Source: Takakia lepidozioides (lineage: Eukaryota; Plantae; Bryophyta). Taken from it: a stretch of DNA of 64,000 nucleotides. Numbering within the stretch: position 1 is the first letter of the stretch; every line of letters begins with the position of its first letter. Location: contig CM060734.1 of assembly GCA_030704615.1 (NCBI GenBank), forward strand, positions 27,466,001 through 27,530,000, in the 5' to 3' direction. Positions 1-34,909 of the stretch are shown here, in pieces. A program made the translations under genes and the position numbers. The notes beneath the pieces are model-generated. The model made no database searches and was not told the DNA's origin. It saw only the letters and a program-made list of their open reading frames with translations.

Positions 1-470
1 TTATCAGCTTGGCTCTGGCTGAGCAACGCAGAGTGCGGAGTACACTTCCCTCAATGGTCTCTCTGCCTACCGAGACGGTACAAGCAGTGAGTGGGGGCGA
101 GCATGTGAGGACCACGGGGTGCATGCATCCATGGCACACGTGGGAGGTGCTCGAGGTTCAGAGGGAGTTGGCAGCCAAGGCGGCTGTGATAGATGAGGTT
201 GGGGATTCTTCTCGGGTTGAGGAGGTCCTCAATGATGAGATGATGGGGCAGGATGAGGTCTTGTCATTGACTGAGCAGGCAGGGAGTACTGCTCAAGAGG
301 TTGCAGCATAGCAACCACGGGACGCGTCCTCTACCTCTAAGCCCACTGGACTTAAGGTTGTAGTTACGGAGGACAATTGGGAGCCTGACATTGGACCCAT
401 TGTCACCGGAGGAGAGAGACGACGTATACGGCGGTTCCTGAGGGCTTACAGGAATTGCTTTGCCTTCAGT

Positions 471-3439
471 TTGAAGGACTTGGGAGCACTGAAGGGTCAA
501 GAGATCCGTATTGAGTTGGCCACTGACACGCCAATCTTTCGGAGACCCTATAGATACAGTGACATGGAGAGGTCTTTGATTCAGATGAGGACTCAAGATC
601 TCTGGGAGGCAGGTTTGGTGGAGCTCTCTGGTGGAGAGTATGCTTCAGCCACAGTGATGCCAGCCAAGAAGGATGTCTATGGCAATTGGACGGAGAGACG
701 TATGTGCGGTGATTACCGGCCTGTAAATCGTCAGACCAAGTCCGATAAGTATGCCATGCCAACACCAGAGGAGATCTTTGATGCCATCGGGCATGCTAAG
801 GCCTTTAGCACTTTGGATTTACGATCCGGATATCACCAGTTGCCAATCAAGGAGGCGGACAAGCAGAAGACGGCATTCTGGGGGATCAATGAGCACGGCA
901 AGATTGCCTATACCAGTGGCGGTTCTTACCATTTGGGCTTAAGAATGCTCCTGCAGAGTTTCAGAGAGTCATGGATAGGATTCTAGCAGGGGTGGACTTT
1001 GCTCGGTGCTACATAGATGACATCATCATCTTTAGTGTTACGATGGAGGAGCATGAGAGACACCTTCAGTGGTATTGGAGCGCTTGAGAGCGCACGGATT
1101 GAAGTTGCATCCGGGGAAGTGCAAGTTTTTCCACAACCAGATTGAGTATCTGGGTCACATGATATATCCTGGAGGATTGGGGGTACAGCAAACTAAGGTA
1201 GAGGCCATTGCACAAATTCCACGCCCCACGGATGTGAGCCGAGTTCGAGCTTTCATGGGGTTGGCAAACTATTATAGACGGTTTGTCAAGGGATTTAGTA
1301 CCATTGCAAAGGCTCTAACCAAGCTGACCAAGGTGGACCAGGAGTGGCAGTGGGAAGATGAGCAGGAACGAGCTTTTCAAGAGCTCAAGGCGAGGTTGAC
1401 CTCGGCGCCTATCTTGAGACGACCTATCAGGGGGCGTCCTTTTCAGCTGCATACGGATTGGAGCATGCTGGGGCTTGGAGCGGTGCTCACACAGGTGGAT
1501 GATGAGGGAAGAGAGTTCGTAGTGGCTTACGCTAGCCGCTCGAACAACGCTGCAGAGGCTAAGTACAGCTCATATGAGGGAGAGTGCTTAGCTGCAGTGT
1601 GGGCCGTGGCACACTTCAGGTGCTATCTATACGGCAATCTTTTCACCCTTGTCACGGATCACCAGCCACTCAAGTGGTTGATGGAGTCAGACAAGCTTAC
1701 GGGGAAGCTTGCACGGTGGGCACTTATACTCCAGGAGTATGACTTTCAGGTTGTGCATCGACCGGGTTTGGTCAATCGGGATGCGGATGGATTGAGTCGC
1801 AATCCATGCATGAGCCAGCAGGATGACACTGGAGCTCGGTGGCATGGTGAGACGGACGAGGAGATGGTGCCGGGATGGCACGCATCTGCATTTTTGTGTA
1901 TCTTGGCATCGGGAGGTCAGATTGGACCTACAACAGGGATGACTGTAGACGGAGTGTCTGAGGACCCTGAGGCTAGTGATGAGCTAGGTGGTGCCAGAGA
2001 TATACATGAGGATTCGGCTGTGTTGGACTACCTCCGCACGGGAGACACGGCAGCCATTGTGACTGCCAGGGAGAGGGATCGGATCCTGCAACGAGCCAAG
2101 AGGTTCAAGTGGGAGGGGATACACCTACTTGAGTGTGGGAGGATGGTCGGGTGAGGATTGTGCCTCACCCCACACAGCGTGCACGGTTAGTGCGGCATGC
2201 CCATGAGGAGTTGGGGCATTTTGGAGTGCGACGCACTCACAGTTTACTGCAGGGGCAGTATTGGTGGCGTGGTATGCATACAGAGGTGCAACAGTTTGTG
2301 GCTAGGTGCATGGTGTGTGACAGGGTGCGTGCTTCATTCAACGCCCCTACACCACAGTTGCATCCTTTACCTATCATGGGATTGGGCTACAGGTGGAGTC
2401 TTGACTTCGCAGGACCGTTGCCACTGACTATGCGCCACCACAGATATGTGTTGGTGATGGTGGAGCACTTCTCCAAGTGGATTGAGTTGGTTCCATTGCC
2501 TGACAAGGCTAGTGAGGGGGCTGCGTATGCATTCTTGGATCGTGTGCTTAGCCGATTTGGTGCTCCAGCTGAGGTACTCACGGACCAAGGGAGAGAGTTC
2601 TTGGGGGAGTTTCAGGCTTTGTGTGATAAAGCCTTGATAGACCACCGCACCACTTCTCGGGATCATCCTGAGGCCGATGGCTTAGCAGAGAGAGTTGTTC
2701 AACGGTGAAGAGGGGTTTGCGCAAGTATGGCTTGCAGAAGGGACACCTAGGAGATTGGGATCTTCAGGTTCCTTGGTTAGCCATGGGCTACAGGTTCAGC
2801 AAACAACATCACTTGCCTCCTTCTCACCATATTTCCTTCTCTTTGGCCGAGAGCCGGATTTGCCTGCAGCATTCGTAGGGACACTGCTCAAGTCCTTAAC
2901 CTTGACGATCCGGACGTGTGGGTACGTGCATGTGATCAGCGTGCAGAGTTGTTCAAGAAAGTCATGCCCATGGCTTTTGAGAACCTTGCCATTGCACAGC
3001 ACCGTGATACGTTGAGGTATGCCACTATACGTGGTGGAGGATATCGTCCTGGGGTTCGGAGGTTTAGCCCTGGTGACTATGTTTATTTGCAGCAGACTGC
3101 TCCTACGACTCTGGATGTTACTGCAGGGCGTGTTATTCTGAGGGTTCGAGAGGTGTTGCCCTCAGGGTCCTGATCTTAGAGGGTCGGGATGGCATGACTT
3201 GGAAAGACCATGTGCGTAATTGTGCGCCATGTCACCTTCCCAATGTCGATGGCAGAGTTGACCCAAACTTGGCAGTGGTACCTGCAGGTTTGAGGTGCAT
3301 GCTCTGTGGGTCTGCCAAAGGGGCAGCCACCATGCTGGTGTGTGATCGGTGCTCAAGGGGTTGGCATATGGGATGCTTGACACCACCTCTTGAGAAGGTT
3401 CCTGACGGAGATTGGTTGTGTCCACACTGCTTGGGATAG
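471..3439 (+). pseudogene. pol polyprotein (reverse transcriptase, RNase H, integrase, C-terminal PHD finger), split by several frameshifts
   Basis: [23 protein letters not shown] (about 1009-1020, off-track frame), RNase H LHTDWS/DHQPL/NRDADGLSR, integrase HHCC (HEELGHFG..CMVC), WSLDFAGP, LTDQGREF, GLAER, then a C4HC3 PHD at 3296-3430. Confidence 0.92.
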
Positions 3440-3699
3440 TGGCAGTGGACATGACTGGAGGCAGCTAACAAGACATGGGAGGCCAAGCTCATAGGAGTCA
3501 ATACATGAGATCCCAAGCTCAAGTTCACAGGTTGCAAGACGGCGACTAACGATGGGGCAACTCTTGCACCCGGCCTCTTGATCTATCGAGTTTGACTGTA
3601 GTAGGGATAGTGGTGGAGGACTTAGTGAGGCTATGGTCACTATCACATCTTGTGGCTACCTGGACTTAGAGGGACCTAAGCACCAGCTAGGGGGGCGAT

Positions 3700-4405
3700 T
3701 GTGTGGACTAGTGACTGCCATAGTGGGCAGCGTAGTGGCAGCCTAGTGACTGACTAGTTGTAGCCTAGTGGTTGGACTAGTGGCTGGACTAGTGGTAGAC
3801 TAGTGGTATACTAGTGTGTGGTGTGCACATGTGTTGTGTGATTTTGGACAGCGATGTAGTTGTGTAGCGATATGTATGCGCACGACAGCTGTCAAGTTAT
3901 TTTACCACTAGTGTGAAACTAGCTAGGAAATAGCTAGTTTTTACATATTGATATTTGGGATTGGCCCAAGTGTCAATCCAGGGGTCAAGGCAGATTTAGG
4001 CCCTGGAGTGGTTATCTTCACGGCAAGCGCGGGAGGCTCATCTTTCTCGAGTTGAGCCTCACCGCGCCTAGCTATGGCGCCGTAGTGTGGATTCCCCATG
4101 GCGTGGGGTGCACTTGGCTTGACTTGTATTTGAGTGATGAGGTTATATATGCATGAGTTTATGCTTCAGCTTTGTGAGCTCGCATGAGCTTGTGCTTGTA
4201 TCCTTCCTCTTTATCATTGTGTGGACTAGTGACTGCCATAGTGGGCAGCGTAGTGGCAGCCTAGTGACTGACTAGTTGTAGCCTAGTGGTTGGACTAGTG
4301 GCTGGACTAGTGGTAGACTAGTGGTATACTAGTGTGTGGTGTGCACATGTGTTGTGTGGTTTTGGACAGCGATGTAGTTGTGTAGCGATATGTATGCGCA
4401 CGACA
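3700..4405 (+). repeat. 3' LTR region with a 188-bp direct repeat at both ends (3700-3887 and 4218-4405)
   Basis: TGTGTGGACTAG...CACGACA occurs twice, almost identical. It contains 12-bp GACTAGTGG subrepeats. TATA-like TTATATAT at about 4143. Confidence 0.85.
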
Positions 4406-4797
4406 GAGCGTTCAGTGATTGCGGCACTGAAATTGACACCATTTTTTATTGTCTTTGTTTGCTTGCGCGAGGAAGCGAATCATTCTTGACTTTGGCTTTG
4501 GTTGTGTCGTATGAATTTGCAGGTGCCTGTATGTGGGCGGCAATGATGTCCAACCGATTTGTGTTCTCATTTGAGGGGGATACGGCCTTGTACGATTTTA
4601 ATTTGGCGGGCCTACAGCGTCTGCCTCTTACTGAGGATCCCAACAACGCAGAACAGGACGTGGAAGGGGAGGAGGAAGTCTAGGAAATTCGTCCGATGCA
4701 GGGGCGCCCGAAGCCGCTTCCTGCAATGCCTGTCTTCGAGTGAATTGCACCATAGTAAGTGTATTGGTTTCGGTTGTAGGGACCATGCAACCTGTCG

Positions 4798-6459: not shown

Positions 6460-8107
6460 CATCCTTTGAACCATTTTTGAATGACCTCATACTTGTTTGG
6501 TACCTGTTTGACGGCATGTACAATATACTGGCAAAGTTTCAAAACAATTAAAAATTGCTGAATGAAGATACCATTGGTTCACCCATTGCAATATTTTAAA
6601 TCGAACTCATACTTGTCCGGTACCTTTAAGAGGGCATGTACAATGCAATGACAAAGTTTGAAAGCATTCAGAAATCGGCACATCAAGTAACCATTGGTTC
6701 CTCCTGTGAACCATTTTTTATTGATCTCATACTTTTCCGGTCCATGTAAGAGGCATGTAGTACATACTGGCAAAATTTCAACTCATTCAATTTTTTTTTG
6801 ATCAAGGAACCTTTAGTTTATCCTTTTCACCATTAACGATTACACAAATAAATGAACATACGCATAAATCATTTGCCTCCAAATGATTTTGGTTCGCTTT
6901 GAGACTTGGCCAGTATCTTCAATGTACCATGGAAGAGGCCCCAGAGTAATATGAGATCAATCGAAATTTGTTCAATGGGCCAACGGATGGTTGCCCATCC
7001 AAATGATTTTCGTTCGCTTTGAGACTTGGCTTATGTGTTCAATGTACCCTCTGATAGGTCCCAGTGTAATATGAGATCAATCAAAATTCGTTCGATGGGC
7101 CAATGAGGCGTTCAGTTGTCATTTGGTTTTTGTTCATTGCGAAAAAGAAATCTTGCAATAGGTAAACATTCAAGGGCATATAACCAAGGACCAGATTTGG
7201 CCACAAAAGATCCATCCGGATGTGGTTGAAGCCCCTCTTTTGCCCGCATGTGCTTGAACATGTGTGCAACACATGTGCGGAGACACAACAGACAAATAAA
7301 TCATTTGCCTCCCCATCGACACCAAGCCATTCCATAATGTAATTGAATTTAAATTAATTTTAAGCCAATAAATAAGTTTGCACTGCCTTTCATTGGGGGT
7401 TTCTGGCACGTATCGATTTTGTTTTTGGCTCAATTTTGTTCTGCGGCTTCCAGCATCCCACCACTATTCCCCCGCCAAAATTTGGACCAATCAGAAATGC
7501 CCCCAAAAAAAAGTGTTCTCTTCATTTACTATTGTAAAACTCTCTATGAAGAGTGCATGAAGTTGAACACAAATCAAGTTTGGAGTGTAAAACAGGGAAG
7601 AAACTGTGGTTTTGGGTCCAAATGAATTATGTTTGCTCCCAAATTTGGCACGCACATTACATATGGCTACATTACACGCCCCATTCAAAAACCGGAAAAA
7701 AAATAAAATCGTGAGCACGCGAAACACAGTCCAACAGGTCCCAAAGCAATAGTAGATCTAGCAGAATACATTCAACGGGTGAACAGATGGTTGCCCATCC
7801 AAATCATTTTTGTTTGCTTCCAAACTTTGCCAGTACGTTTGAGACACCCTCTCATAGGTCCTAGACTAATATCAGATCAATCAAAATTCATTCAATGGCT
7901 CAACGGATGGTTGGCCATCGAGATGATTTTGGTTTGCTTTGAGACTTGGCCAGTATGTTCAATGTGCCATGGAAGAGGCCCCAGAGTAATATGAGATCAA
8001 CCGAAATTCGTTCAATGGGCCGACGGATGGTTGCCCATCGAAATGATTTTCGTTCGCTTTGAGACTTGGCCAGTGTGTTCAATGTACTTTCTGATAAGTC
8101 CCAGTGT
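6460..8107. repeat. 120-bp-period tandem repeat array plus one unit of an approximately 1-kb higher-order repeat
   Basis: AAATGATTTT(G/C)GTTCGCTTTGAGACTTGG recurs at 6881/7001, with variants at 7801/7921/8041 (120-bp spacing). 6460-6790 holds diverged, apparently inverted 120-bp units. Confidence 0.85.
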
Positions 8108-8666
8108 CAGTGCCCACCCAGTTATGGGAAGGAGCAGAGGAAAAGAATAGCTATCAAGGCTCTACCATACACTATGATAGGTGGAAGATTGTATAAGCTA
8201 GGACCTAATGGAGTTCTTAAGCGATGCTTGTACCACCATGAAATAAATAAAGTTTTGGAAGAAGTTCATAAATGAGTGGCTGGAGGTCATTTTGGAGAGG
8301 AGACTACCAGTAGAAAAATACTACTTGCAGGTTACTGGTGGCCTACTTTGTTCAAGGATGTACACAAGTATTGCAAGAGTTGTGATGAGTGTCAGAGGCT
8401 AGAACCTTTGCAAAGACCTGGGAAGATGGCTTTGCATCCTACGATGTCTACTAAACCATTCCAAAAATGGGGACTAGACTTTCTTGGACCAATTAATCCA
8501 CCAGCCAGGAATACACAGAACAAGTATATAATCACAGCCACTGATTATACTACAAAGTGGGTGGAAGCTAAGGCTCTGAGGGACAACACAGCTAAGTTCA
8601 CAACAAGGTTCCTATATGAGAACATACTTACGAGATTTGGCTGTCCCCTGGAATTTATCAGTGACC
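8108..8666 (+). pseudogene. Ty3/gypsy integrase fragment (HHCC and start of the DDE core)
   Basis: GGHFG..GYWWPTLFKD..CDECQR, KWGLDFLGP, TDYTTKWVEAKAL, RFGCPLEFISD; ends abruptly at about 8666. Confidence 0.9.
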
Positions 8667-11108
8667 GCCATATCAGTGAGCCCAAACTTTGCAGCTATGG
8701 CTGTTCTGAAGTCCACCCAGTTGTCTGGTCTGGGTTTTTGTTTGTGATACCAATCATCAGCCCTAGCTCTCAGATTCAGCCTTGCCACTTTAAAGGTCTT
8801 GTCCTCGTTCAGATTTCTGACGTCTGCCTCCATCTGAATCCTTTCCAGCCAGTCACTTACATCCTCACTATTCCTACCATGGTAAGGCACAACTATGCTA
8901 GTAGGATCAGTCATCCTGCTGCTCTTTCCAACACTATTCTATCTAACTGTGAGGTTATAGAAATACAAATGTGGTTTAGCATATGTATTTGTTGAGCGGC
9001 GACTAAAGCAAATCAACACACCCCCAATGCTTTGTTCATCAAGAATCAGGGTATGGTCCCTGCCTGCCATCAACCTTGCATCTGTTTCAACCAAAAATCC
9101 TACTCTAAACAGTTCAGATTAAGCAAAGCTCTGATACCAAAAGAAGGGGCATAAATCCCCTTCTGTCTAATTCTAATCTAGTTCTTAGTGAAAGGTCTTG
9201 TTGTTATTCTGGTTCTCCCACACAGGTTGGCTACATCCATGTTGTTTATGATCAGAGTTCATAAAGCCCTCATCCACGCCGCAGCGGAAGAGAAGACATG
9301 GATGGGACAAGTGAAGGTGTTTCCTGCATAGTACAACAGGCCTGACTAGGGTTCTGTCTTGCACCAGCTAAGTTTTCATGCTGATATAGTCACTCAAACA
9401 GCTTACCAGAGGGTTAATGACAGCCTATGAGTTCACCATTTGCATGTAGCATCTACTTGAACCCCCTTTGTTGTCATGCAATCACCAAAAATGCAAGGCA
9501 ACATGGATCTACCATACAGTACAGGTCTGATATTTCTATGCAACTCATGGTCTTTCCTTTATCTCTCAACTGGCCCTCCCTTCATCATTCTTTTGCTGAA
9601 CAGATCTCTCTTCTTCCCAATGTTTTCTCTCCCTTTCTAATGCAAGTGCCCTGGTTTCTTATATCAGACCAGACAGCCCCTCTACATGCAATGCAGATAT
9701 ACCAAGGCACACATCCAGTGGAGACCTTTTGCAAAAATCCTCCTTGGAATCATAAGTACACACCACATTCTCTCTTAGCTTTTCTCTCCTCCCAAACAGA
9801 ATCTCTCCTCGTTCTCATACCCTGATGCTGACAGTTGCAGACCTTGTCCCTCATTTCTACCCTGTAACAAGTGCAACGATTCCCTTGGTGAATCTCCCTA
9901 TACTGTTCATTTTGCAGACTTGTTTAACTCTAAACACTGATGCACAGTTTGCTCCAGATTCAGTGTGCTGAACCATAAAATCAAAAGCAAGACAAACGCT
10001 ATGCATTCATTGATTGTAGATGGGCTGCATCTGCCTTCTATCACCATTCCCAAAGACATGCATCATCTCTCATCCTCTCTACACCATTCTGGTTTGAAGC
10101 CAGACCACCACTCCATTCCATTTTTCAAAACGTTCTCATACTCTCTCTACTAACTCCAGAGCCCTCAATCATTTCAGCGACATCTATCTAAGTAGAAGAA
10201 GAAGAAAAACCTTCGCACTTAACTGATATATACCCCTGATCAAGCGGTGGGTTCCCTGCTCAAGCTGGCACCTCACCCTCCTTGACATCAGCCGCCATAA
10301 TGTTTGCTGTTACTTGCATCTGCCGGCGCTTCTCCAAAATGAAGATCTTGCATACTAAATTCTTCATTGTCGCAGTACCCCAGTCTACATTAATCCCTAA
10401 TCTTAAGAGTTCATCAAAGCCTAACAGTTCTGCTCTCTCATGGCAGCCCCCTTACCATCTAGCCAGACAACTCTTGTTTCTCCCCTCATTACTTCTACCT
10501 TACCCTAAGATAAGATCTCCAACTTTGACAACAAGCTACTGTGACCACAGCCCTTATGCATATCTACAGTCGTTCTCCCCACAACTCTCCTCATCTCTCA
10601 GCAGGCCTAGATCTATATCCCTTCAAGGCAGTGACGGCACCACCCTTCCTTTCTGTCAACAATACATAGTGTCGAAGTGCTCAGTCCACCGCAGGCCTAT
10701 CCTCCAGCGATCCCCACTCTTTAAAGCAACCTAGTGATGATGGCACCGCCTTCCTTCATCTGGCACGAGCACGTTTCACCAAGCTGTTTCCTTGTAGGCT
10801 TATCCTCCAACAAGCTCGACGTCAAGAATTCATCAAGACAGAAGCGGCACCGCTTCTCCTTCTGGATGGTGCACAGATTACCACGCTGCCCTTTTGTTTC
10901 CCCATTACTGCTCATCAGGCTTCAAGGTAAATCCAGTTAGCACAGCAGGGTTAGTCACCCTTAACAAAACAGCTCTGCTAATCCATTGCAGCACCTGCGC
11001 ATCTTCCCGCAATCCTTTCCCTCGTCATCTTCCCTGTGAATCTAGGGCAACATTAGATGAATGACATCCCCTTAACGAATGAAAAATACAAGGGGTTCAC
11101 ATCCTTCA
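8660..11108 (-). mobile_element. 5' end of an LTR retrotransposon: approximately 1.97-kb LTR (9142-11108), tRNA-iMet PBS (9129-9139), gag N-terminal fragment (8660-8914)
   Basis: CTCTGATACCA is the reverse complement of PBS TGGTATCAGAG. Putative LTR termini are (t>a)GAAGG...CCTTCA. Gag-like YHGRNSEDVSDWLERIQ...RARADDWY. Confidence 0.7.
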
Positions 11109-13279: not shown

Positions 13280-15636
13280 CCCCGTCTTCGTAATGAGATG
13301 CTTCTCCAACTCTTATTTTTCCAATGTTGATATCTTCCATCTGGAACATATCCACACATGCGTATATAAAGACTCAAAAAACCAAATGACCGTCAAAACT
13401 GGAAGCTGGGGATGAGGCTTATAAAAGTGGAGATGGTCATTTGCTTATTTAAGGATTTCTGCACACATGTGTGGATCTGTTCCAGGTGGAGAACATCAAC
13501 ATATTGGATAAAGTGGACATGGAGAAGCACTGCATTACGAGGCAGGAGACACTACAAAAAAGAGCTTCAAAAGGCATACCATGTAACATGTCCTAGTATA
13601 ATCAAAGACGAAACCCGATTCATTCAATGGGCGATTGAATGGTTGCCCATCCAAATGATTTTCGTTTGCTTTCAATCTTTGCCACTATGTTCAACATACC
13701 ATGTATCAGGTCCTGGACTAATATGAGATCAATCAAAATTCATTTGATAGCTCAACGGATGGTTGGCCATCGAAATGATTTTGGTTTGCTTTGAGACTTG
13801 GTCACTATGTTCAATGTGCCATGTAAGAGGCCCCAGAGTAATATGAGATCAATCGAACTTTGTTCAATGGGCCAACGGATGGTTGTCCATCCAAATGATT
13901 TTCGTTCGCTTTGAGAATTGGCCAGTGTGTTCAATGTACCCTCTGATACGTCCCAGTGTAATACAAGATCAATTGAAATTCGTTCGATGGGCCGATGAGG
14001 CGTTCACTTGTCATATGCCCCTCTTTTGCCCCCATGTGCTTGAACATGTGTGCGACATATGTGCGGAGACACATTAGACGAATAAATCATTTGCCTCCCC
14101 ATCGACGCGCTCACCCCTCAAGCCATTCCACAATATAATTGAATTTAAATTCATTTTAAGCCAATAAATAGGTTTGCACTGCTTTTCATTGGGGTTTTTG
14201 GCACGTATCGATTTTGTTTTTGGCTCAATTTTGTTCTGCGGCTTCAAGCATCCCACCGCTACTCCCCCACCAAAATTTGGACCAATAAAAAATGCCCCAA
14301 AAAAAAAGTATTCTCTTCGCTCACTATTGCAGAATTCTCTATGAAGAGTGCATGAAGTTGAACACAAATCAAGTTTGGAGTGCAAAACAAGGAATAAACT
14401 ATGGTTTTGGGTCCAAATGAATTATGTTCACTCCCAAATTTGGCACGCACGTTGCATATGGCTACATTATACTCCCCATTCAAAAATGGAATGAAAAAAA
14501 AAACCGTGAGCACGTGAAACACAGTCCAACAGGTCCTAAAGCAATAGCAGATCCAACGGAATACATTCAACGAGTGAACGGATGGTTGCCCATCCAAATC
14601 ATTTTTGTTTGCTTCCAAACCTTGTAAGTACGTTCGAGACACCCTCTCACAGGTCCCCGACTAATATGAGATCAATCGAAATTCATTCAATGGCTCAACG
14701 GATGGTTGGCCATCGAAATGATTTTGGTTCGCTTTGAGACTTGGCCACTGTGTTCAATGTGCCATGTAAGAGGCCCCAGAGTAATATGAGATCAATCGAA
14801 TGGGCCAACGGATGGTTGCCCATCCAAATGATTTTCGTTCGCTTTGAGAATTGGCCAGTGTGTTCAATGTACCTTCTGATACGTCCCAGTGTAATACGAG
14901 ATCAATCAAAATTCGTTCGATTGTCCAATGAGGCGTCCACTTGTCATCTGGTTTTTGTTCAATGCGAAAAAAAAATCCTGCAATGCGTGCACGACCATTG
15001 CACCCATTGAACGGATGTGGTTGAAGCCCCTCTTTTTCCCCCGTGTGCTGGAACATGTGTGCGACACATATGCGGAGACACATTAGACGAATAAATCATT
15101 TGCCTCCCCATCGACGCGCTCACCCCTCAAGCCATTCCACAATATAATTGAATTTAAATTCATTTTAAGCCAATAAATAGGTTTGCACTGCCTTTCATTG
15201 GGGGTTTTTGGCACGTATCGATTTTGTTTTTGGCTCAATTTTGTTTTGCGGCTTCAAGCATCCCACCGCTACTCCCCCGCCAAAATTTGGACCAATAAAA
15301 AATGCCCCCAAAAAAAAGTGTTCTCTTCGCTCACTATTGCAGAACTTTCTATGAAGAGTGCACGAAGTTGAACACAAATCAAGTTTGGAGTGCAAAATAG
15401 GGAAGAAACTGTGGTTTTGGGTCCAAATGAATTATGTTCGCTCCCAAATTTGGCACGCACGTTGCATATGGCTACATTACACGCCCCATTCAAAAACGGA
15501 ATGAAAAAAAAATCGTGAGCACGCGAAACACAGTCCAAAAGGTCCCAAAGCAATAGCAGATCCAACGGAATACATTCAACGGGTGAACGGATGGTTGCCC
15601 ATCCAAATTATTTTTGTTTGCTTCCAAACTTTGTCA
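13280..15636. repeat. Higher-order tandem array: approximately 1.01-kb units built from 120-bp subrepeats, same family as 6850-8107
   Basis: GAACATGTGTGCGACA...GCGGAGACACATTAGACG at about 14042 and 15051; the same block is at about 7257. Confidence 0.88.
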
Positions 15637-15749
15637 GACGATGGTGGCGCGGGGGTGGAGCTCCGCCCCCTTGCGTTTTACTGAATGACATATTTGACAT
15701 CTCAACGTGACCTGATCTGGAATCATACCTTCCCATATCATTTGCTCAT

Positions 15750-20246: not shown

Positions 20247-23200
20247 ACGTTTTGTTGGCATGTGGTGCATGTCTCGACATACTCCTCGGCCTCCTCCCTC
20301 AGTTTGGGCCAGAAATACTCTTTCTTCAGGAGTGTCGCGGTGCGCTTGGTTCCGCCGTGGCCCGCAAGCGGGCCATCATGGCATTCTCTCAAGATCTCTG
20401 ATCCCTCCCTTCGGCACGTAGAGACGCTTTTGCTTGTACCGGAGCAGTCCATTGTGCAAGTGGAACTGCGATTTAATCCCCAACCTCAAGTCCCGCATCA
20501 CGGACTTCGCCATCTCATCCTTCCGATAAGCCTTCCGGAGCGCCGTCTCGCCTCTGTATACCAACATGAGCTGCTGCTTTCTACTTAAAGCATCGGCCAC
20601 CACATTGTCCCATCCCGGTTTGTACTGGATATCAACGTCAAACACTGCCAAAGTGTCTTGCCACCTAAGTTGTTTTGGGGACAACTTAGACTGTGTGGCA
20701 AAATACTTCACTGTGACATTGTCCGTGAACACCTTCACCGGGTTGGAACCAACATAGTGGCGCCAAAGCTCGCACCACCGCCTTCATTTCTTTCTCGTGC
20801 GTAGGCCACCGTTGCTCTACTTCATTCAGTTTCTTACTTTTGTAAGCCACTGGATGTCCATCCTTCATGAGCACACCCTCAATTGCGAAGTCCGACGCAT
20901 CTGTATGAATCTCAAATGGACGGTCAAACTCCGGGATTTTCAGGACTGGAGTTTCCGCCATCCGCTGCTTCAACTCGGCAAAAGCTTGGCCACAAAAGGT
21001 GTTCCATACCCATATCTTGGACTTACACAGAAGGTCTGACAGTGGCCCCGCGATCTTGGCGAAATTTCTCACATACTTTCGGTAATAGGAGGCGAGTCCT
21101 AGGAAGGATCGCACTCCCGGGACCGAAGTCGGAGGCTCTTAGTCCAAGATCGCTCTCACCTTTCTATCATCCATTTTTATCCCATCCTATGTAATCACCT
21201 GCCCTAGAAACTCCACTTTTGTGACCCCAAATTCGCACTTTGAAGCTTTGGCATACAGCTTCTCTTCCCACAATTTTTGGAACACCCTTTCGAGGTGTTC
21301 CAGGTGCTCTCTCCTTTGTTTTCGAATACACCAAGATGTCGTCGATGTACACGATCACAAAGTCATCCAACCACTCCTGGAAAAGGCTGTTCATTAGCAT
21401 GCTAAAGGTCGCGGGTGCGTTGGTGAGCCCAAAAGGCATCACCAAGAACTCATATGAACCATATCTTGTCCTGCACGCGGTCTTCTCCTCATCTCCTTCC
21501 GCCACTCGGATTTGATGGTAACCTGAGCGCAAATTGATCCGGCTGAATTACTTTGCTCCTGCCTTCCGATCGAAGAGGTCGTCGATCCTTGACAAAGGGT
21601 ACCGGTTTTTTATAGTCACCTTATTCAGAGCCCTGTAATCGACACACATCCGCAGCAATCCTTCTTGTCTGCGAATAGCATCGCGGCTCCGTAAGGTGAC
21701 TTACTCGGCCGGATGTACCCCTTTGACATTAGATCCTTGAGCTGGGCCTTCAGCTCAACCAACTCTCTGTGGCTCAACCGGTAAGGCACCTTGGCAGGCG
21801 GCTCCGATCCCAGTATCACCTCTATCTTGTGGTCAACTGCTCTTCGCAGTGGCAAGCCACTTGGTAAATCCTCCGGCATCACATCCTGGTATTTCTCTAG
21901 GATCCCCTTGATCCAATCTGGGCTAAGCTCCCTATCGACTTCTCCTTCCACTTGTCTTACGTAAAGTAAAACTGGGGCTCGTGTGGCTCCTCCACTGCCC
22001 ACTCCTTTGCTATCAGCAGGTTTATTCGCCCTCCCACTCGGTTGGGCGTTTCCGACACTCGTAAAACTTTGCCACCATTCCCACACGGTAGCGTGACTAT
22101 TCTCTTGCGGCCATCTATGACCGCTCCGGATTTGCTCAAAAAGGTCATCCCCAAAATGAGATCCACTCCATCGATCTCGCAAATGGTGAAGTTCTCACGT
22201 CCCTCCCAACTCCCGAGCTGAAGAGGGACATTGAACGCCAACCTCGTTGCCAGTTGTAGTTCTCCTTTGGTAGAACGCACTTCAATAGAGGCCCCCACAT
22301 CACTCGTCGGGAGCCCCAGCTTCCGTGCCGTTGCCGGTGTCATGAAATAGTGCGACGTTCCTGTGTCCACCAACAACGACACGTTAGTTCTGGAAATTAT
22401 CCCACTCACGAACATTAACTGACTCCCTTTACGTAAGGGGCCAGTCTCCTGATACAACTCACAAGAGTAGTTGCCTACCTTGCAAGTCTTGGCGACTACT
22501 GCCTCCACCAAGCGACTGATGGAATCTTCGGACAGCTCCGTGGTTGCCTGAGTCATATTCAATTGTCGGGGTTTCGCGCACTTCTTGGCCATGTGCCCGG
22601 GCTCCCTGCAATTAAAGCACACTCCATCAAAGGTCGCCTTCTGTCCGCCATAAGCCGCCGCACCTGATTTTCCTTTCGAAGCACCAAATGCCGCTTTGAC
22701 GTGTGAAGGCCCTCCCTTCGATTTCCATGTGCCATTGTCGCCGCGTGGCCTATCCCACTTCTTTTCTAGTCAGAAGGAGTCACCCTCCTGCCGGGCCTTC
22801 TTGTGGTTCAGCTCCGTATGGCCTTGTCTTTCACCCCTAAGGACATCCGAGAAACATTTAGCCCTTTCAATTGCCTCGTTCAAAGTCTTAGGTGGCTTCT
22901 CCTCCAACTTCCGCCTGGCCCATGGGGCCAATCCCGCCACAAACTTGAAGACCATTTCTGGTTCCGCCATATCCGCGACTTCGAGCAACAACACATTGAA
23001 AGCCTAAACATATCCCCGAGTGTCATCCGTTTGCTTCAAATTCCTCATCTTGTCCCAGGTGAGCCATGACGCGTTGAGGGGCACAAACTGTCTTTTCATA
23101 AGTTCCTTGAATCCACTCCAGCTCAAGGTTTCTAGGTTTGGACCTTGGTCATAAAGGCGTTTTTGCCACCATTGTTGAGCATAGCCCCTCAAATAGGTGG

Positions 23201-24420
23201 GAGCCACTTCCACTCGATCCTCGTCACTCAACTTGGCCGCCCGGAAGTACTGCTCCAGCTCCACGAGCCAGGTGTTGAGTGCCTTCCGATTTCAGACGCC
23301 CTCGAAGGTGTCGGGTTCCTTAGGCTTCACCTTAAACTTTGCCTTAGTGGAAGTGGCATTAGCCGCCCTCATCACATCTTTCAACGTCCCGCCAAATTGC
23401 GCCAAAAACCCTTCCCAAAAGGCTGCTGGCATGGGAGGCATCTGTTGGTCTGGCAGAGCCTCTGGGAAGTCCTCGGGTTCCGACTCCCCAAATTCTTCCC
23501 GTTCTTGAGCGGCCTCGCTTTCAGAAGCATAAATCGCCTCTTCCAATTGTCGCTTCGGTGACACGTCGCCCCCACCGGGCTCACCAGGATCATCATCTTT
23601 CGGGCCGTTCCGCTTTCGTTTTGTCTTGCCCGACCCCATGATGAGGCCGATCTCAAGGACGATCGCGTACTGAACTCTAGGCTCTGATACCAAGTGTCGC
23701 GCACCTCACTTCGGTAAGCTCCCCTTCACGTCATAGTTACTCGCTTTGATGCGCGCGCCTAATTCCCAAACTGGCCGCCGGGCCAACTCGGAGTTTCGGC
23801 TGCTCACCGGGACATAATGGTCCCCTTTTGCTCCTTCACAAGACCCTCGCTCACTTTGGGCCTAGTGGAAATTCCCTTTGGTTGTTGGCAGTCCGGAACA
23901 GCTCCCCACACCTTGGTCGCTTTCCGGCTCGCACGCTTACTCACTAGTTTTTGGTCACCAACGGGCTTGCACCGTTCTTGGGGTTACTACTCCCTATATA
24001 TACTTCAATGACTGTCCGCGGGGGTTTCACAAACAACACCGTCCTTTTATGGCGAACCACCACGAAGGCCCTTGACTCCCGGTGATGAGTCGCGGTGAGT
24101 CTTGGCCCGACCACCACGGCCCCAATGGACCGTGATGAGTCCCAAGACTTCCCCACGACTCCCAGCACAAGGTCTCCGCCCCATAGTGAGTCTTATGCCA
24201 CCCCCACTAAGACCCACTAAGCTACCATCACCCCTCGTGGAACCACCCCCACCGCAACCCGGTGTGCGGGGCTCCACCTAGTGAGCGCCTCCGCCTCTTT
24301 GAGTGCCTTGGGCACTCAGGGGTGCTTCAGCCCCCGTACCTATTGTTGCCACTGCCCCCACCACAGGGGCAACCCCTCTTGTGTCCCGACCCCCTGCCCT
24401 CAAGGCAAAGGGCCGCGACA
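20247..24420 (-). mobile_element. Chromovirus-type Ty3/gypsy element, 3'-truncated (5' LTR, PBS, gag, PR, RT, RH, start of INT)
   Basis: LTR 23695-24420 with TGTCGCG...CGCGACA termini; PBS tRNA-iMet 23682-23692; gag CCHC CFNCREPGHMAKKC; protease LVDTGTS; RT YIDD; RH IHTDASDF; multiple stops and frameshifts. Lineage inferred from homology to the 56921 copy. Confidence 0.95.
23695..24420 (-). repeat. 5' LTR (726 bp)
   Basis: 7-bp terminal inverted repeat TGTCGCG; adjacent PBS; homologous to 56921-57646. Confidence 0.93.
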
Positions 24421-26678: not shown

Positions 26679-28895
26679 TCAAAACTGCAAATCATCATTC
26701 GTACCTTCTGCATATGATGGCCCACCTTCTGGTTGTCCAACTATTGGCTGTCCAGCTAAATATAGCTCAGGATGAGAGAACAAATGTCTGAAGTTTGTGG
26801 AGTTCTTCCACAAAGATATGGCCTCAATCAAAACAGGTTGACATGCCTGCACACTTGGCCCTTCCAAAGCAACACGAAGCACACTTTCCAAGTTCTTTGT
26901 TTTCAACTTGTTTCGAAATTTAGTTTTGATTGAGTTTTGAACTGAGAATGCCCTCTCACATGCGGCAGTGCTTACACATTGAACTCGAGCAATTTCAGAA
27001 AGCACAAACAAGTTTTCATACTTCATCGTTAGAGAAGGGTTCCAAGTCACCATGCCCCAAAGATCCTTGAAAGTTTTCTCCATCCACTCGGTACTTGCCT
27101 GTAGTTTGAAAGCAAAGAACTCTCGTTTCACCGCTGCTATGTCAACAAGGGCAGGCAATGTCCTTCCTGCAATATGTCTTTCGACACCATAGTGCGCACA
27201 TAATATTTCCAACTCTACTACACCCCAACTTGCTAACCCCACTTGCCTAGTTGGTAGGTTACATGGACTCAATATTTTGAATGCACTTACAACTCCGTTG
27301 TCCTCAAATCTGGCATCCAAAGCATTGCAAACAGCCTCTGCATAAAGCTTTTGGAAGGTAAGTGCTGCCTCCAAATCACCCCCCATCCTCTCTCGTGTCA
27401 TTTGTACACCATGAAAATTGGATCCCCTAATCTCAGAGGCTAGCCGCCTCAAATACCCACCAGGAGGACCAAATTCCGGGATGATGTGATAACCCATTTC
27501 CTCATTGAAGGTAGATTGGTTCAAATCCGTGCTATCCTCAATGAAAAACATTCGTATTTGTGCAATCTCTGTCTTAACTATGGACCCAATGCTGGTTACA
27601 TCCACAAACTTCCATTGGAACACACATGAGAGTAGAGATAGTGCAACATATCAGCCAAAAAATACAAGACATAAATCATTTTGAATGACCTAAGCTTGTT
27701 ATACAAAAGAGAGGCTGATCCATCATCATTGGCAACCGGCACATCTCTAAAATACGTGACAACACTCTCAAGACTATCACAAAGCGATGTCACGGCCTGC
27801 CACCTAGATAACCAACGAATCTTGTGAAACCTTTTGAGGCACTTCTGAGCATCATTAAGCTCGGTCTGCAAAGCTTGCAAGGTTGCCTTACGCTTAGATG
27901 ATTTGCGAAAATGACCAGCAAGAGAGTTCAAAAGTGTGTCAACCTCATTTGAAATAAGATGACATGCTGATGTCTACGCAATGGACGGCCAACATAAAGG
28001 GGTTTACCTTTTGCTTAAGACGAGCAGCCACGCCGGATCGAGCCCCCACCATGGTTGCTGCCCCATCCGAACCAAACCCCAAAAACTTATCTACATCCAA
28101 ACCCCACTCTTTCAAACTAGTTAGTAAACACTCATATATCATTGCGGCATCCTTCTTGCCATCAATAATCTGAAGTAAACCCAAAAACAGAGTGACTGGC
28201 AAACCCTCTTCAACAAAAGAAGCAAAAACAACAAGATGACCGGTCACTGAAATGTCAGTTGACTCATCTATCATGATTCCATAGTACTTGGAATCCTTCA
28301 CTCTATCCAACACTTTTTTCTGAACAACACATGAGATACAATACAATATATCAGCACACGACTTCTCATCATGGTACAGTTTCTGGGTAATACAAGCTTT
28401 GAGAGTAACCAAAAGTTGACACAAACCTGGAAATTTGCTAAATGGCAAGGCCTCCAAACCAATGTAGTAAGCAACTTGGAAAAGAGCCAAAACAACATCA
28501 TCACAAGCTCGATTAGCACTAGCTATGGCTTTCTCCATGGCTTTCTTACCAGATTGTAGGGCCCAAGAGAACTTACGATGCTCTTCTGACCTAGCATGGT
28601 CTTGGAATGAACTCACCTTGACATTGACAGAACCAGCATTTGCAAAGACTGTCCTCCTTCCTTTCCCTCTACAAACTTTACAAAAAACCCTACCTAGATC
28701 ATGGTTAAACTCAATCCAATCAAATTGAGTGTACCAAACATCTTTCCATGCTTTCTGGGCTGCCTCTACACTATTCGATGGCTTGTCCATACCACTTGAA
28801 GATGAGGCAGGGGGGACAGCGGAAGGAGACTCCTCATCACAATCACCAGTGCGACCAGCCCTAAATAACATTAGATTCCTTTGGCGCTTGGCCAT
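26679..28895 (-). pseudogene. hAT transposase (ZNF862/DUF4371-like with hATC dimerisation domain), two frame breaks
   Basis: FCKVC..H zinc finger, IMIDESTD, FGSDGAATMVG, VHCV, IRWLSR, STAACERAFS; breaks near 27950-27975 and 27610. Confidence 0.92.
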
Positions 28896-29374
28896 AGCCA
28901 AGACCTTACAAAATACAAATTTATAGCACGGAAATTGCAACAAGGAAGGGCCAGCGAGTGCAAGCAGGCGGGAGCGTCGGCAGCACATCAACATACAGCC
29001 AGTGGTAAGTGCGGGCCCCGGCAGGTGACATGTGGACTTAGCAAAGAACGAGTGCAAGGCCTGCCAACTGCCTGAAGCAAATCAGAAAATAGAAGGGGAG
29101 GTGGGTCAGAAATGGGTGCGAGGTGAGTTGCAGCCCTCCCAGCCGCCTTTGCCCGACACAAAATAGACACAGCTTGTGCCTGCTGCAAAGCAACAGAAAC
29201 CGTGGTCGAAAGAACGGTAGAAGAACCGAAGGGGGAGGCCTACCAATGCCCTTGCTTTTTACTGCATGATGAGCACAAAGTATGCAGAAAGTCATGTAGC
29301 TGTAGACTTCGAAAGGCAAAAGTCATAACCTCTCACTAGGAAAAGCAAAGACATAACCAAATGAAACAAAGACT

Positions 29375-32255: not shown

Positions 32256-34909
32256 ATGGTGGTTTTTGAAGCAATCAGTGGAGACGAAAACGAAGGAGTG
32301 AAACAACTGGCATTGGAACATGGCGATAGTGAACCAGTGGTGACATGGCTTAAGCATGCACAACATCTGGCACCCCTTGTTGCCGCAGAGGCCTCTTCTG
32401 TGAGGGCATTTCTAGGAAAATGGAAGGCCTTAAGAAACCGATTGCTGCAATTGCTGGCCCTACTGGATAAGCTTGCAGATCCTTGGTGCTCTGAAGTCAC
32501 AAGTTGCAGGGATCTCTTGCAGGTAATTTAGCTTTTACATGTCATAGGGTTCGCAGAAAGCAAGTACAACCACATTTGGTTTGAACGCTTGGCATCCTAT
32601 ATATGCTGCAGTGATCAAGGCAGGAAAGAATTTGACAACTTGCCAGTGTTGCACCAGGTTGATTCTGCTACAGATGTGGAAAAGTATTATCATGAATATT
32701 GTGGACTCCAGTGTTCAGTTCAGATTAAGCATAATGTCACTTGTGGTCATTCTGTGGGAAACTTGAAATGCTCTTCCATATCGTGTCAGAATTCTCACCA
32801 CTCCTGATTCTGCTCCATGAAAAGCCCTGCCAGGGGCGACTGTGACGGGAGTCTTACAGTGCTGTCGTGAGAGTCAGAACCATGTGGTTTAATTTCAGGA
32901 CAGGTTTTACCCAAGTCAGGCTGCTGAGTACCTAAGACTGGAAGACACACTGCTGCTTGTCTTTCCCTTTCTAGTAGGTCTAGGTCATTCACACTGAAGG
33001 TTTTGTGTGCAGGCTATTGTTTCAAGTCTGGAAGAGGCCCATGTGCTGGCAAAGAAATGCACAGATCTGAGCTATGGCGGAAAACTCCATACGCAAAGCA
33101 ACCTGGACTCACTCACTGGGAAGCTTGATCTCCATATTCATGACTGTCAACTGATGGTCAAGAGTGGAATTTTGCAAGAGAACCCTCTGGCTATTTGTCG
33201 GGTGACCCCTGAGTCAACCAGGGAAGCCATACGGTGGACTATCAGAGACCTGCTTGCCTGCCTTCAGATTGGGAGCTCTGACTGCAAGCAGAAAGCACTA
33301 GACAGCTTGGTCCGGGTTATGTCAGAAGATGACAAGAATGTTCTGGTTGTTGCGGGGCAGGGTGCGGTTACGGCATTGGTACATTTGTTGGATGCCAGCC
33401 AATCTTCTATAAGGGAGAAAGCAGCTGCTGCTATGTGTAGGCTGGCCCTGAATGACAGTTGTGCACATTTGGTGGTTAGTGAAGGAGCTATAGCTCCCCT
33501 TGTCCGTCTTCTTGAGTCTGGGAGCTCTCTCGCGCAAGAGAAAGCTACTGCTGGACTGCAAGGCTTGTCGTTTGCTGCAGAGAATGCATGTGCAGTTGCG
33601 GCCCATGGTGGGATCCCTGCCCTTGTAGAAATTTGTCGGATGGGCACACCAGGAGCACAAGCTGCTGCTGTAGGGTCCTTAAGAAATCTTGGGGCGGTAG
33701 CAGAGCTCAGAACTAGCATTGCGGAAGACGGGGCAATCCCTATTATCATTAAGTTGGTTACATCAGGTACAGCCATTGCACAAGAGAGTGCCGTGGCCAC
33801 CTTACAAAACTTGGCTGTGAGTGATGATTCAATCAGGCAGGCCATTGTTAGAGAGGGGGGGATCCAACCCTTGCTGAGATCCTTGGACAATGCAACTGGA
33901 CCACGGTCCCAAGAAATAGCTATTGGAGCACTCCGCAACCTTGCTGCTTGCATGGTGAATACTGAAGGTCTTGTAGCAGCAGGATTTCTTCCACGCCTTG
34001 TAGGGATCCTTCAGAATGGAGCAGTCACAGCACAACAGGTTGCAGCTGCTGCTGTGTGCCACATGGCAGCCACAGCAGATACCAGAAGGCTGTTGGGGGA
34101 TGCAGGCACAATCCCACCATTGGTGAAGATGCTGGATGCCAAAACTTGTACTGCACAAGAGTATTCTGCCCAGGTATTGTGTATTTCTTGAATATCTATT
34201 GCACTCCAATGTGGGATTATGGCTAGCCCTAGGCCCATAAAAAATTTCTCATGAGTTCGATACTTCCTGGCTTTTATACAAGCTTTTCAGCGACAATTAA
34301 TAGATTCTATGATGTTTGAAATTTAACATGGTTTGATGCAAGGCTGACGGCTGGTTTGGGACCACCAGATATAAATTCTGGACCAGTTCAAGTCAACGCT
34401 TTGTACAGATCATACCTACGCAGTGTCCCTAAGTCTTTGCTCAGGCCCTCACGGAGTAATAGTGATAAGTGATGTGTCTGCAGGCATTGTCAAGCCTTCT
34501 CCTAGTGGATGGAAATCGCAAGCGCTTCTTGACAGAGGAAAGGGGTATTATGGGGCTGGTCCTGTTACTAGATACTCGGTCCCCAGGGGTTGCAAAGCAA
34601 TTTCCAATTGCCGCATTACTCACGCTTGTTGGCAATATCAAGTGTAGAAAGCAAATGGTGGTTGCAGGTGCCAGCTACCACCTCCGGATGCTGGCGGACA
34701 TGGAAATCACAGGTGCAAAGCGGCTGTTGGATAGGTTAGAAAGTGGCAAGCTGCGCAGCATCCTCAGCCGAACACTGCTGGCAAGTACTTTGATCATTTT
34801 ATTGGGTTGCATCTCTAACATAAACTGTCAAATGTGTAAGTCTGTGTTGCTGAATGTGGAGAGACTCCTCCCTTTCTCTCCCCGAATTTCAGAAGCAGCA
34901 AGTTCATGA
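32256..34909 (+). CDS. Plant ARM-repeat protein (Vac8-like armadillo superfamily); exons 32256-32522, 33013-34173, 34484-34909 (3' end uncertain)
   Basis: GT-AG introns in phase 0 (CAG|GTAATT at 32523; TGCAG|GCT at 33013; CAG|GTATTG at 34174; TGCAG|GCA at 34484). N-terminal FLGKWKALRNRL..SYGGKLHTQSNLD domain, ARM repeats (EGAIAPLVRLL, HGGIPALVEIC, EGGIQPLL), C-terminal GAKRLLDRLESGKLRSI. No internal stops. Confidence 0.93.

Follow-up and report, generated by a model that had tools for sequence, protein, structure and literature searches.

The classic example of a retrotransposon that reads chromatin is targeting through a chromodomain. Two systems close to the one analysed here were described from algae. 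KnitGypsy-Dnmt3 of Klebsormidium nitens is presented in one figure legend as having DIRS-type repeats together with Gypsy domains (PMC5890265), and Gypsy-7a_cRei of Chlamydomonas reinhardtii carries a PHD finger in its Gag-Pol (Craig et al., 10.1101/2022.06.16.496473; PMC9940879). In the passages of the respective sources at hand, a transposon-borne PHD is also reported for Ginger1-9_HM (PMC2836005), fusions of PHDs with transposable elements are called numerous by Grau-Bove et al. (10.1101/2021.11.30.470311) and PHDs in retrotransposons widespread by de Mendoza 2019 (PMC6673714), while CR1-like LINEs and REM1 are cited as further PHD-bearing mobile elements. The present analysis concerns a window of 64,000 nucleotides from the bryophyte Takakia lepidozioides (assembly GCA_030704615.1, contig CM060734.1, forward-strand positions 27,466,001 to 27,530,000), which has at its start the 3' part of a Ty3/gypsy copy whose reading frame is broken and whose family is abundant. 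The integrase of this family is tipped with a PHD finger and its terminal repeat is split into two parts, here named A and B. We propose that the finger tethers integration to histone H3 unmethylated at lysine 4 (H3K4me0) and that the integrase cuts at an internal junction of the repeat; taken as a whole, this reading has in our view slightly better than even odds of being correct.

The first-pass annotation of this DNA had placed a polypurine tract (PPT) and a long terminal repeat (LTR) behind the stop codon of the PHD frame. The PPT exists, about 250 bases downstream, but the terminus is the series A1-B-A2 and no plain LTR (Table 1). The junction of A and B spells CA-GC-TG, that is, two element termini back to back, and read depth drops more than tenfold past about position 4400 in sequencing runs X2 and X9. 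Ten relatives could be followed at both ends. Seven of them have the form B-internal-A and three the form B-internal-A-B-A; in every case the copy begins with B and finishes with the CA of A, and two complete direct LTRs at the ends were found in none of the ten, which have B alone at the 5' end and A or A-B-A at the 3' end. A perfect 4-bp target duplication flanks eight of these loci, with one mismatch in the other two. The TG...CA termini and 4-6 bp duplication of Ty3/gypsy elements are therefore present in the relatives; the 5' end of the window copy lies outside the window. After deduplication of ends by flank, with one contig-edge locus and loci lacking a whole A or B left out, the distinct 3' ends comprised 25 with a single A, nine with A-B-A and two of fold-back type. 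The split repeats as an assembly artefact were ruled out by the target duplications and by the free ends at 3887 and 3890 in the organism of the window.

For reverse transcription, A and B together act as the LTR, because the PPT precedes A and the self-priming site follows B. In relatives the self-primer site is situated about 30 bases after a TATA-like box, its pairing with the primer site is preserved with different letters in two families, and the reverse complement of 4040-4051 continues behind position 4216 in eight X4 and two X9 contigs. Three fold-back copies (L018:3699-3880, L037:1750-1930 and L023:1619-1800) carry, after B, a copy of the primer site and the inverted first half of B, and stop at the inverted TG of the B start. 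Judged by their sequence, these copies appear to record directly both the self-priming and a cut at the junction. Nine distinct B|A2 joins were found, seven precise and two with extra bases ending like a PPT. Junction cutting and fresh joining of ends are therefore indicated by the fold-back ends at the inverted B start together with the two joins bearing extra bases. Because the copies run TG-B-internal-A-CA, are flanked by 4-bp duplications and are palindromic where A meets B, cutting by the integrase is likely to take place within the repeat, and that it does so at the internal A|B junction can be called probable. Unlike reverse transcription, integration would then likely employ the two ends brought together at A|B.

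The replication cycle that would follow starts with an RNA beginning inside B, which would prime itself in the manner of Tf1/Tcn1. Reverse transcription would yield A-B-internal-A-B, and the integrase would act on the back-to-back CA|GC|TG ends at A|B, giving the B-internal-A form as the common product. The B-internal-A-B-A form would arise by joining of leftover B and A ends, before or after integration; it is likely the replicating master, because it is the sole form with the repeat R at both RNA ends.

Concerning the integrase, an HMM scan confirmed the complete C4HC3 PHD finger followed by a stop that had been described (PF00628, E 1.7e-11, 44.4 bits, cut-off 24), the frame reading CMLC...CDRC...WHMGC...CPHC before the stop. 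The integrase core and SH3-like tail announced upstream of it were also recovered (PF17921, PF00665 and a modelled SH3-like barrel), and the order of reverse transcriptase (RT), RNase H (RH) and an integrase (INT) with H2C2 and DDE domains is that of Ty3/gypsy elements. The finger indeed occupies the place of the chromodomain of chromoviruses, since the window's own chromovirus has PF00385 at that position (62102-62233 of its plus-strand copy, E 1.7e-8; this copy also has SH3_Tf2-1). The claim that the PHD belongs to the pol frame holds for the family, where 198 of 217 proteins spanning the integrase core align through the PHD, but not for the window copy, whose frame is split by a one-base break at about 3164: the integrase-tail reading frame 2781-3173 ends after LPSGS, and the PHD sits in another frame (3077-3439). 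The other 19 proteins are mostly cut or frame-shifted records, while three Closterium proteins and P0154 end without a PHD. At the DNA level, the set of metagenome loci (n=78, the best 80 of 212 kept) provided 59 that cover the region from SH3 to PHD, and both lie in the same frame in 50 of these (15 open, 35 with stops; the remaining nine are frame-shifted).

When positions 3170-3436 were used as query, 67 of 96 candidates matched; those with a named source come from Marchantia, Calypogeia and Sphagnum, and six of the records combine integrase core and PHD. With the integrase-PHD region of P0010 as query, long pol proteins were found from Tetrabaena, Pleodorina, Volvox, Haematococcus, Chromochloris and Closterium, and also Klebsormidium, Riccia and Calypogeia were among the matches listed (the best 120 of 260). 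The PHD-tipped integrase is real, and in the green lineage it is both old and widely distributed; the earlier suggestion of an architecture "rare rather than new" was not upheld, as the fusion extends across chlorophytes, Klebsormidium and bryophytes. In a protein-cluster atlas the top cluster with INT and PHD for P0011 (score 0.94, 80 members) is perhaps that of the query itself; Mollusca is the commonest phylum among its 24 labelled members.

Quick phylogenetic trees, with SH-aLRT support only, were constructed for the integrase (93 of 240 sequences) and for RT-RH (51 of 127). The window grouped in a clade of 71 of the 93 integrase rows (support 99), within which a subclade of 40 rows (support 98) holds the window and all streptophyte-named rows, and in a clade of 30 of the 51 RT-RH rows (support 100). 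The window chromovirus falls outside the clade in both trees, which have few references and long branches. On these sequence comparisons we place the element in a well-supported Gypsy clade of chlorophytes, Klebsormidium, Closterium, liverworts and Sphagnum; from the described features considered below it is probably distinct from Selgy, Phygy and the chromoviruses. The distribution of the clade would fit descent from the green-plant ancestor. A further Gypsy pol protein, P0161 (2226 aa), lies outside the clade in both trees and has a PHD at 2172-2216. This finger is of the cage type, with Tyr before the first Cys and Trp two before the His, and P0161 likely represents another case in which a PHD was joined to integrase, one that arose independently and whose predicted preference is the opposite.

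Several described lineages were considered for the identity of the element. The first-pass annotation had mentioned PHD-bearing elements in Selgy, a lycophyte lineage outside the chromoviruses, which could not be substantiated: the main text of Neumann 2019 does not contain 'PHD', and that study lists no extra domain for Selgy. Selgy is described with a tRNA-Ala primer site, a length of 4.4-6.7 kb and no extra pol domain (PMC6317226); compared by description, it was rejected on the self-complementary primer site, the presence of the PHD and the size of 8.6-9.9 kb in eight of the ten both-end copies. Phygy, with its tRNA-Trp primer site and NCGN target motif (PMC6317226), does not fit either, since only one of 34 distinct target 4-mers is NCGN and a self-priming site takes the place of tRNA-Trp. 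The C-terminal domain, PHD instead of chromodomain, spoke against a chromovirus, and the DDE integrase and target duplications excluded DIRS/Ngaro elements, which have a tyrosine recombinase and no DDE. Troyka is unrelated and is described from animals only, with CG...CG termini and a 3-bp duplication (PMC12440569), against TG...CA and 4 bp here.

The residues of the finger give some indication of what it could read. Gly two before the His instead of the cage Trp, as pointed out before, was seen in the window and prevails in the family (G in 178, A in 14 and W in one of 198). The proposed likeness to KDM5-PHD1/BAZ fingers was also supported, as the closest solved relatives are KDM5A/B PHD1, ATXR5, CHD4, BAZ2A/B, DPF and UHRF1; the best 60 of 82 solved matches further include PHF12, PHF21A, AIRE, KAT6 and ORC1b, with no ING-, BPTF- or TAF3-type chain among them. 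P0001, which shares 89% identity with the piece from the window, was modelled with AlphaFold (mean pLDDT 77, pTM 0.38); the model had the ATXR5 PHD as top fold match (Z 9.7, rmsd 1.6, 53 residues), followed by DPF2 and ORC1b, and the PHDs of ATXR5 and ORC1b were solved with H3 peptides. All eight zinc ligands are retained. The window also retains the equivalents of L309, P331, G333 and W335 of KDM5A PHD1, which form the H3A1 pocket, and of D312, the essential R2 contact, which is kept in 183 of 198 relatives; the roles of these residues in H3 binding are taken from the parts of Longbotham et al. at hand (10.1101/715474). The non-cage character, the A1 pocket and the R2-binding Asp of H3K4me0 readers are thus present, and the acidic contacts to K4/R8 are missing. 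The residue equivalent to E305 is acidic in 93 of 198 relatives and that equivalent to D315 in 17 of 198. In ATXR5, too, the cage residue is Gly and an acidic loop is lacking. From these features, together with a pN/pS of 0.36 against 52 loci, the finger appears constrained and of the non-cage class, and K4me0 binding looks plausible, though weaker in bryophytes. Binding of H3 tails as such is rather likely; a preference for K4me0 that measurably biases insertion falls a little short of an even chance. The finger would bind A1, R2 and K4 of H3 and thereby bias insertion away from H3K4-methylated promoters, which is the weakest part of the scheme.

A HVRNCAPCH motif just upstream of the finger (3209-3235) had been suggested as an extra metal site. 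This was not borne out as a four-ligand site, because all four ligands occur together in only 66 of 198 relatives; singly, the first His is found in 113, the first Cys in 125, the second Cys in all 198 and the next His in 183. The modelled barrel of P0001 (strands 100-150) gave Tudor/KOW/SH3-type matches, including foamy virus integrase (Z 6.6). In this model the motif makes up two strands of a barrel of Tudor/SH3 type, 140-144 and 148-150, together with the short turn linking them, and it occupies the place of HVSLLKPY in the window chromovirus. It is thus modelled as mostly the last SH3 strand. The invariant Cys-His pair and the PHD are both lost in Closterium, and a loop Cys is present in 105 of 198. 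Perhaps the role of the pair is tied to the finger, as a partial zinc site with the loop Cys.

Several results weigh against the proposed combination of junction cutting and H3K4me0 tethering, and some of them favour other explanations. A simple two-LTR circle cut at either junction should also give B-A-B-internal-A copies, with A before B at the 5' end, yet 14 distinct 5' ends included no such case. The form may have been removed when the longer B repeats annealed, or hidden by collapse of short reads. Its absence also favours an explanation in which the split repeats are regenerated in the DIRS/Ngaro style, the A|B junction templating new ends and the integrase using ordinary cDNA ends. That explanation agrees with the layout, which equals Ngaro-type split direct repeats as de Mendoza 2018 says of KnitGypsy-Dnmt3 in the legend mentioned (PMC5890265), and with the seven precise joins out of nine. 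It is harder to reconcile with a PPT right before A and a primer site right after B, which make A+B a normal LTR, with the prevalence of single-A over A-B-A 3' ends, and with fold-back copies cut at the inverted junction, and we consider it improbable.

For the finger, the adverse points are found in its acidic contacts, its rate of change and its distribution. Equivalents of E305, D306, D315 and D292 of KDM5A PHD1 are absent in the window copy, and the 12 relatives closest to P0011 have on average 0.7 acidic loop residues and a net PHD charge of +0.9; the other 186, algal-type relatives have 2.1 and -2.7. The pN/pS of the window against 50-71 loci was 0.14 for RH, 0.18 for the core, 0.19 for SH3, 0.26 for the linker and 0.36 for the PHD (52 loci), so that the PHD changes faster than RH, core and SH3; these values are uncorrected with pS near saturation, and the loci are dead, partly duplicate and non-independent. 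Closterium relatives have no PHD, which is therefore dispensable, and the use of PHD-bearing queries in the homolog searches inflates the share of relatives with a PHD. These data would suit a finger that serves as a tether to nucleosomes or proteins in general, or caps the SH3 barrel structurally, that has no mark preference, drifts in bryophytes and exerts little choice of site. In the bryophyte branch acidic contacts are lost and the finger changes faster, the finger is lost outright in Closterium along with the C-H pair, and E305A alone lowers the affinity of KDM5A about 6-fold (10.1101/715474). On the other hand, zinc ligands, A1 pocket and D312 are all retained, pN/pS remains below 1 and ATXR5 binds H3 without an acidic loop; such a tether is a less likely but serious candidate. 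The flanks of the copies are AT-rich (median GC 0.31 in 34 distinct flanks, with no background set). Reading frames of at least 130 aa are found in 10 of the 34 flanks, and the 17 scanned out of 20 gave four matching one Gypsy element, one PPR, one prefoldin and 11 without a family. Two of the ten loci with long flank reading frames lie near host-like genes (PPR, prefoldin), which may count slightly against avoidance of genes and would rather suit a finger reading H3K4me1/me2 and steering insertion to gene-rich chromatin. Met at the KDM5A L308 position in 152 of 198 points in the same direction. Such a reader is nevertheless very unlikely, given the single cage Trp among 198 members, most of which have no aromatic residue before the first Cys, and the lack of ING/BPTF/TAF3-type chains among the solved matches mentioned above. 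Gypsy-7a_cRei was inserted between genes 2.6 times above chance, explained by the authors by targeting or selection (10.1101/2022.06.16.496473); as the bias is possibly due to selection and the element is at most a candidate member of the clade, this lends the proposed steering by the PHD limited weight.

Table 1. Features of the split-repeat Ty3/gypsy copy; positions are counted from the first base of the window
Feature	Position	Strand	Observation
Upstream reading frame, its end	3..308	+	3-182 against L042 6679-6861 at 45% (amino acids)
In-frame stop then CAA	309..317	+	Stop + CA at homologous place in 36/37 covering loci (L042:6940-6948)
Reverse transcriptase, broken at 901 and 1068	312..1170	+	PF00078 in three frames
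RNase H	1351..1740	+	PF17917/PF17919, E 2e-36
Integrase H2C2 zinc-binding domain	2169..2333	+	PF17921, E 4.8e-17
Integrase catalytic core (DDE)	2388..2700	+	PF00665, E 1.8e-14
SH3-like C-terminal barrel of integrase, broken at 3164	3057..3235	+	Model of 89%-identical relative P0001
C4HC3 PHD finger, without aromatic-cage Trp; stop 3437-3439	3296..3430	+	PF00628, 44.4 bits
Polypurine tract	3689..3698	+	Sequence; tract precedes A1 in relatives too
Repeat A1 (ends in CA)	3699..3887	+	31 X4 contigs leave into unrelated DNA behind 3887
Palindrome at A|B junction (CA, 2-base spacer, TG)	3884..3893	.	Same junction in A-B-A ends of relatives
Repeat B (starts with TG)	3890..4216	+	Unrelated DNA precedes 3890 in 20 X4 contigs
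Predicted self-primer (RNA 5' end)	4040..4051	+	Complementary to 12 bases after B at 5' ends of copies
Repeat A2, 3' terminus of window copy (CA)	4217..4405	+	1 difference from A1 in 190

The counterpart of the upstream reading frame in full-length relatives is situated between a C5-methyltransferase-like region and RT, and the methyltransferase, protease and gag of this element lie beyond the window edge. Such a methyltransferase-like region before RT was found in full-length relatives, with PF00145 in P0070, P0071 and P0155 and a similar region in L042, where 5736-6666 matches the methyltransferase regions of P0071, P0155 and P0037. In P0135, P0136, P0074 and P0075 the methyltransferase-like match is located between RNase H and integrase instead of between protease and RT, and some of these algal-type members (these four among several) carry a G-patch. 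At the stop at 309, translation is likely to read through from the upstream frame into RT-RH-INT-PHD. Stop + CAA presumably resembles a leaky-stop context, and a leaky stop before RT would control how much RT-RH-INT-PHD is made. In most relatives an ATG follows two codons after the stop, which the window copy lacks. The D, D and E of the integrase are retained in 194, 198 and 195 of 198 relatives, respectively.

Seven one-base breaks interrupt the frame in 1-3440 (at 901, 1068, 2130, 2701, 2806, 2869 and 3164), all of them single missing bases, four adjoining the same base. Comparison of four public sequencing runs with positions 1-4700 of the window gave one extra base at each of the seven breaks in at least three of the four runs. 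One record, 99.5% alike over 2006-3747 with nine substitutions and seven gaps, has the extra base at four of the listed breaks. The breaks are accordingly judged to be assembly errors with more confidence than real deletions, if by a modest degree. Given how little A1 and A2 differ, this could be a young copy, and its breaks could be such errors.

The remainder of the window contains two copies, about 90% alike, of the chromovirus, at 56950-62230 (+) and 20250-24390 (-). Pieces of a hAT-type transposase (zf-C17orf113, DUF4371, Dimer_Tnp_hAT) are found at 26679-29081 (-), and an exon of an Armadillo-repeat host gene (DUF7032, Arm), open for 397 codons, at 32998-34191 (+). A dispersed family with 120-base periodic units is present at 6813-8199 and 13540-15640, and an integrase fragment from another Gypsy lineage at 8100-8670.

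Combining a split terminus with integration of the DDE type is more unusual than carrying a PHD. Such termini point to an integrase that leaves the cDNA ends aside, and no well-studied LTR element is known to do so as its normal route of integration. If internal cutting is true, copies without an LTR pair will therefore escape LTR finders and REXdb, and an abundant family would stay hidden from two-LTR annotation. A second, equally old reader at the position of the chromodomain would be a natural test of convergence on the avoidance of H3K4-methylated chromatin, and members occur in Marchantia and in volvocine algae, where chromatin maps and genetics exist. It can tentatively be suggested, at somewhat less than even odds, that the family represents an unnamed system as old as green plants, which would combine self-primed reverse transcription, cutting at an internal att-palindrome and an H3K4me0-steering PHD, often with a cytosine methyltransferase of its own.

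Parts of this picture are already in print, namely a PHD-bearing Gypsy element in Chlamydomonas and split repeats in a Klebsormidium legend. For the land-plant integrase-PHD of the clade and for the cutting model no description was found in print; Repbase, REXdb v4, Craig's 2021 thesis and Perez-Alegre 2005 may describe the family. The passages at hand on Ginger1, of Grau-Bove et al. and of de Mendoza 2019 do not mention any clade of plant Gypsy elements whose integrase ends in a PHD, and Supplementary Table 6 of Grau-Bove et al. may list members. In the available KnitGypsy-Dnmt3 text and in three term-searched supplements neither a PHD nor a mechanism was found, and that text does not give termini, target duplications or a primer site (PMC5890265).

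Compared by description, KnitGypsy-Dnmt3 is similar in its Gypsy pol, cytosine methyltransferase and DIRS-like repeat layout (PMC5890265), and DIRS-like split repeats with Gypsy domains are what the present family has. A Klebsormidium INT-PHD protein, P0190, shares the 40-row subclade of the window (support 98) and may be the published KnitGypsy-Dnmt3 or another element. The methyltransferase of the relatives is recognised as PF00145 and may be of the Dnmt3 subtype that KnitGypsy-Dnmt3 has. Where KnitGypsy-Dnmt3 is presented as a charophyte family (PMC5890265, in the part at hand), the present clade extends to chlorophytes and bryophytes. Gypsy-7a_cRei differs in being described with two near-identical LTRs (10.1101/2022.06.16.496473). 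The fingers of KDM5A/B PHD1, ATXR5, BAZ2A/B and ORC1b share the fold, the absence of an aromatic cage, the A1 pocket and the R2-binding Asp with the finger of the window; unlike the KDM5A/B PHD1 type, the window copy lacks the acidic patch and the second Asp, which are partly present in algal members. Chromoviruses (Tcn1, Tekay, Reina, Galadriel, CRM, Chlamyvir) also carry a histone reader at the integrase C-terminus, with self-priming in Tcn1, but, as described, they have a chromodomain instead of a PHD, mostly 5-bp duplications and intact LTRs (PMC6317226). If the proposed reading is true, steering by the PHD would be the independent counterpart of the chromovirus chromodomain.

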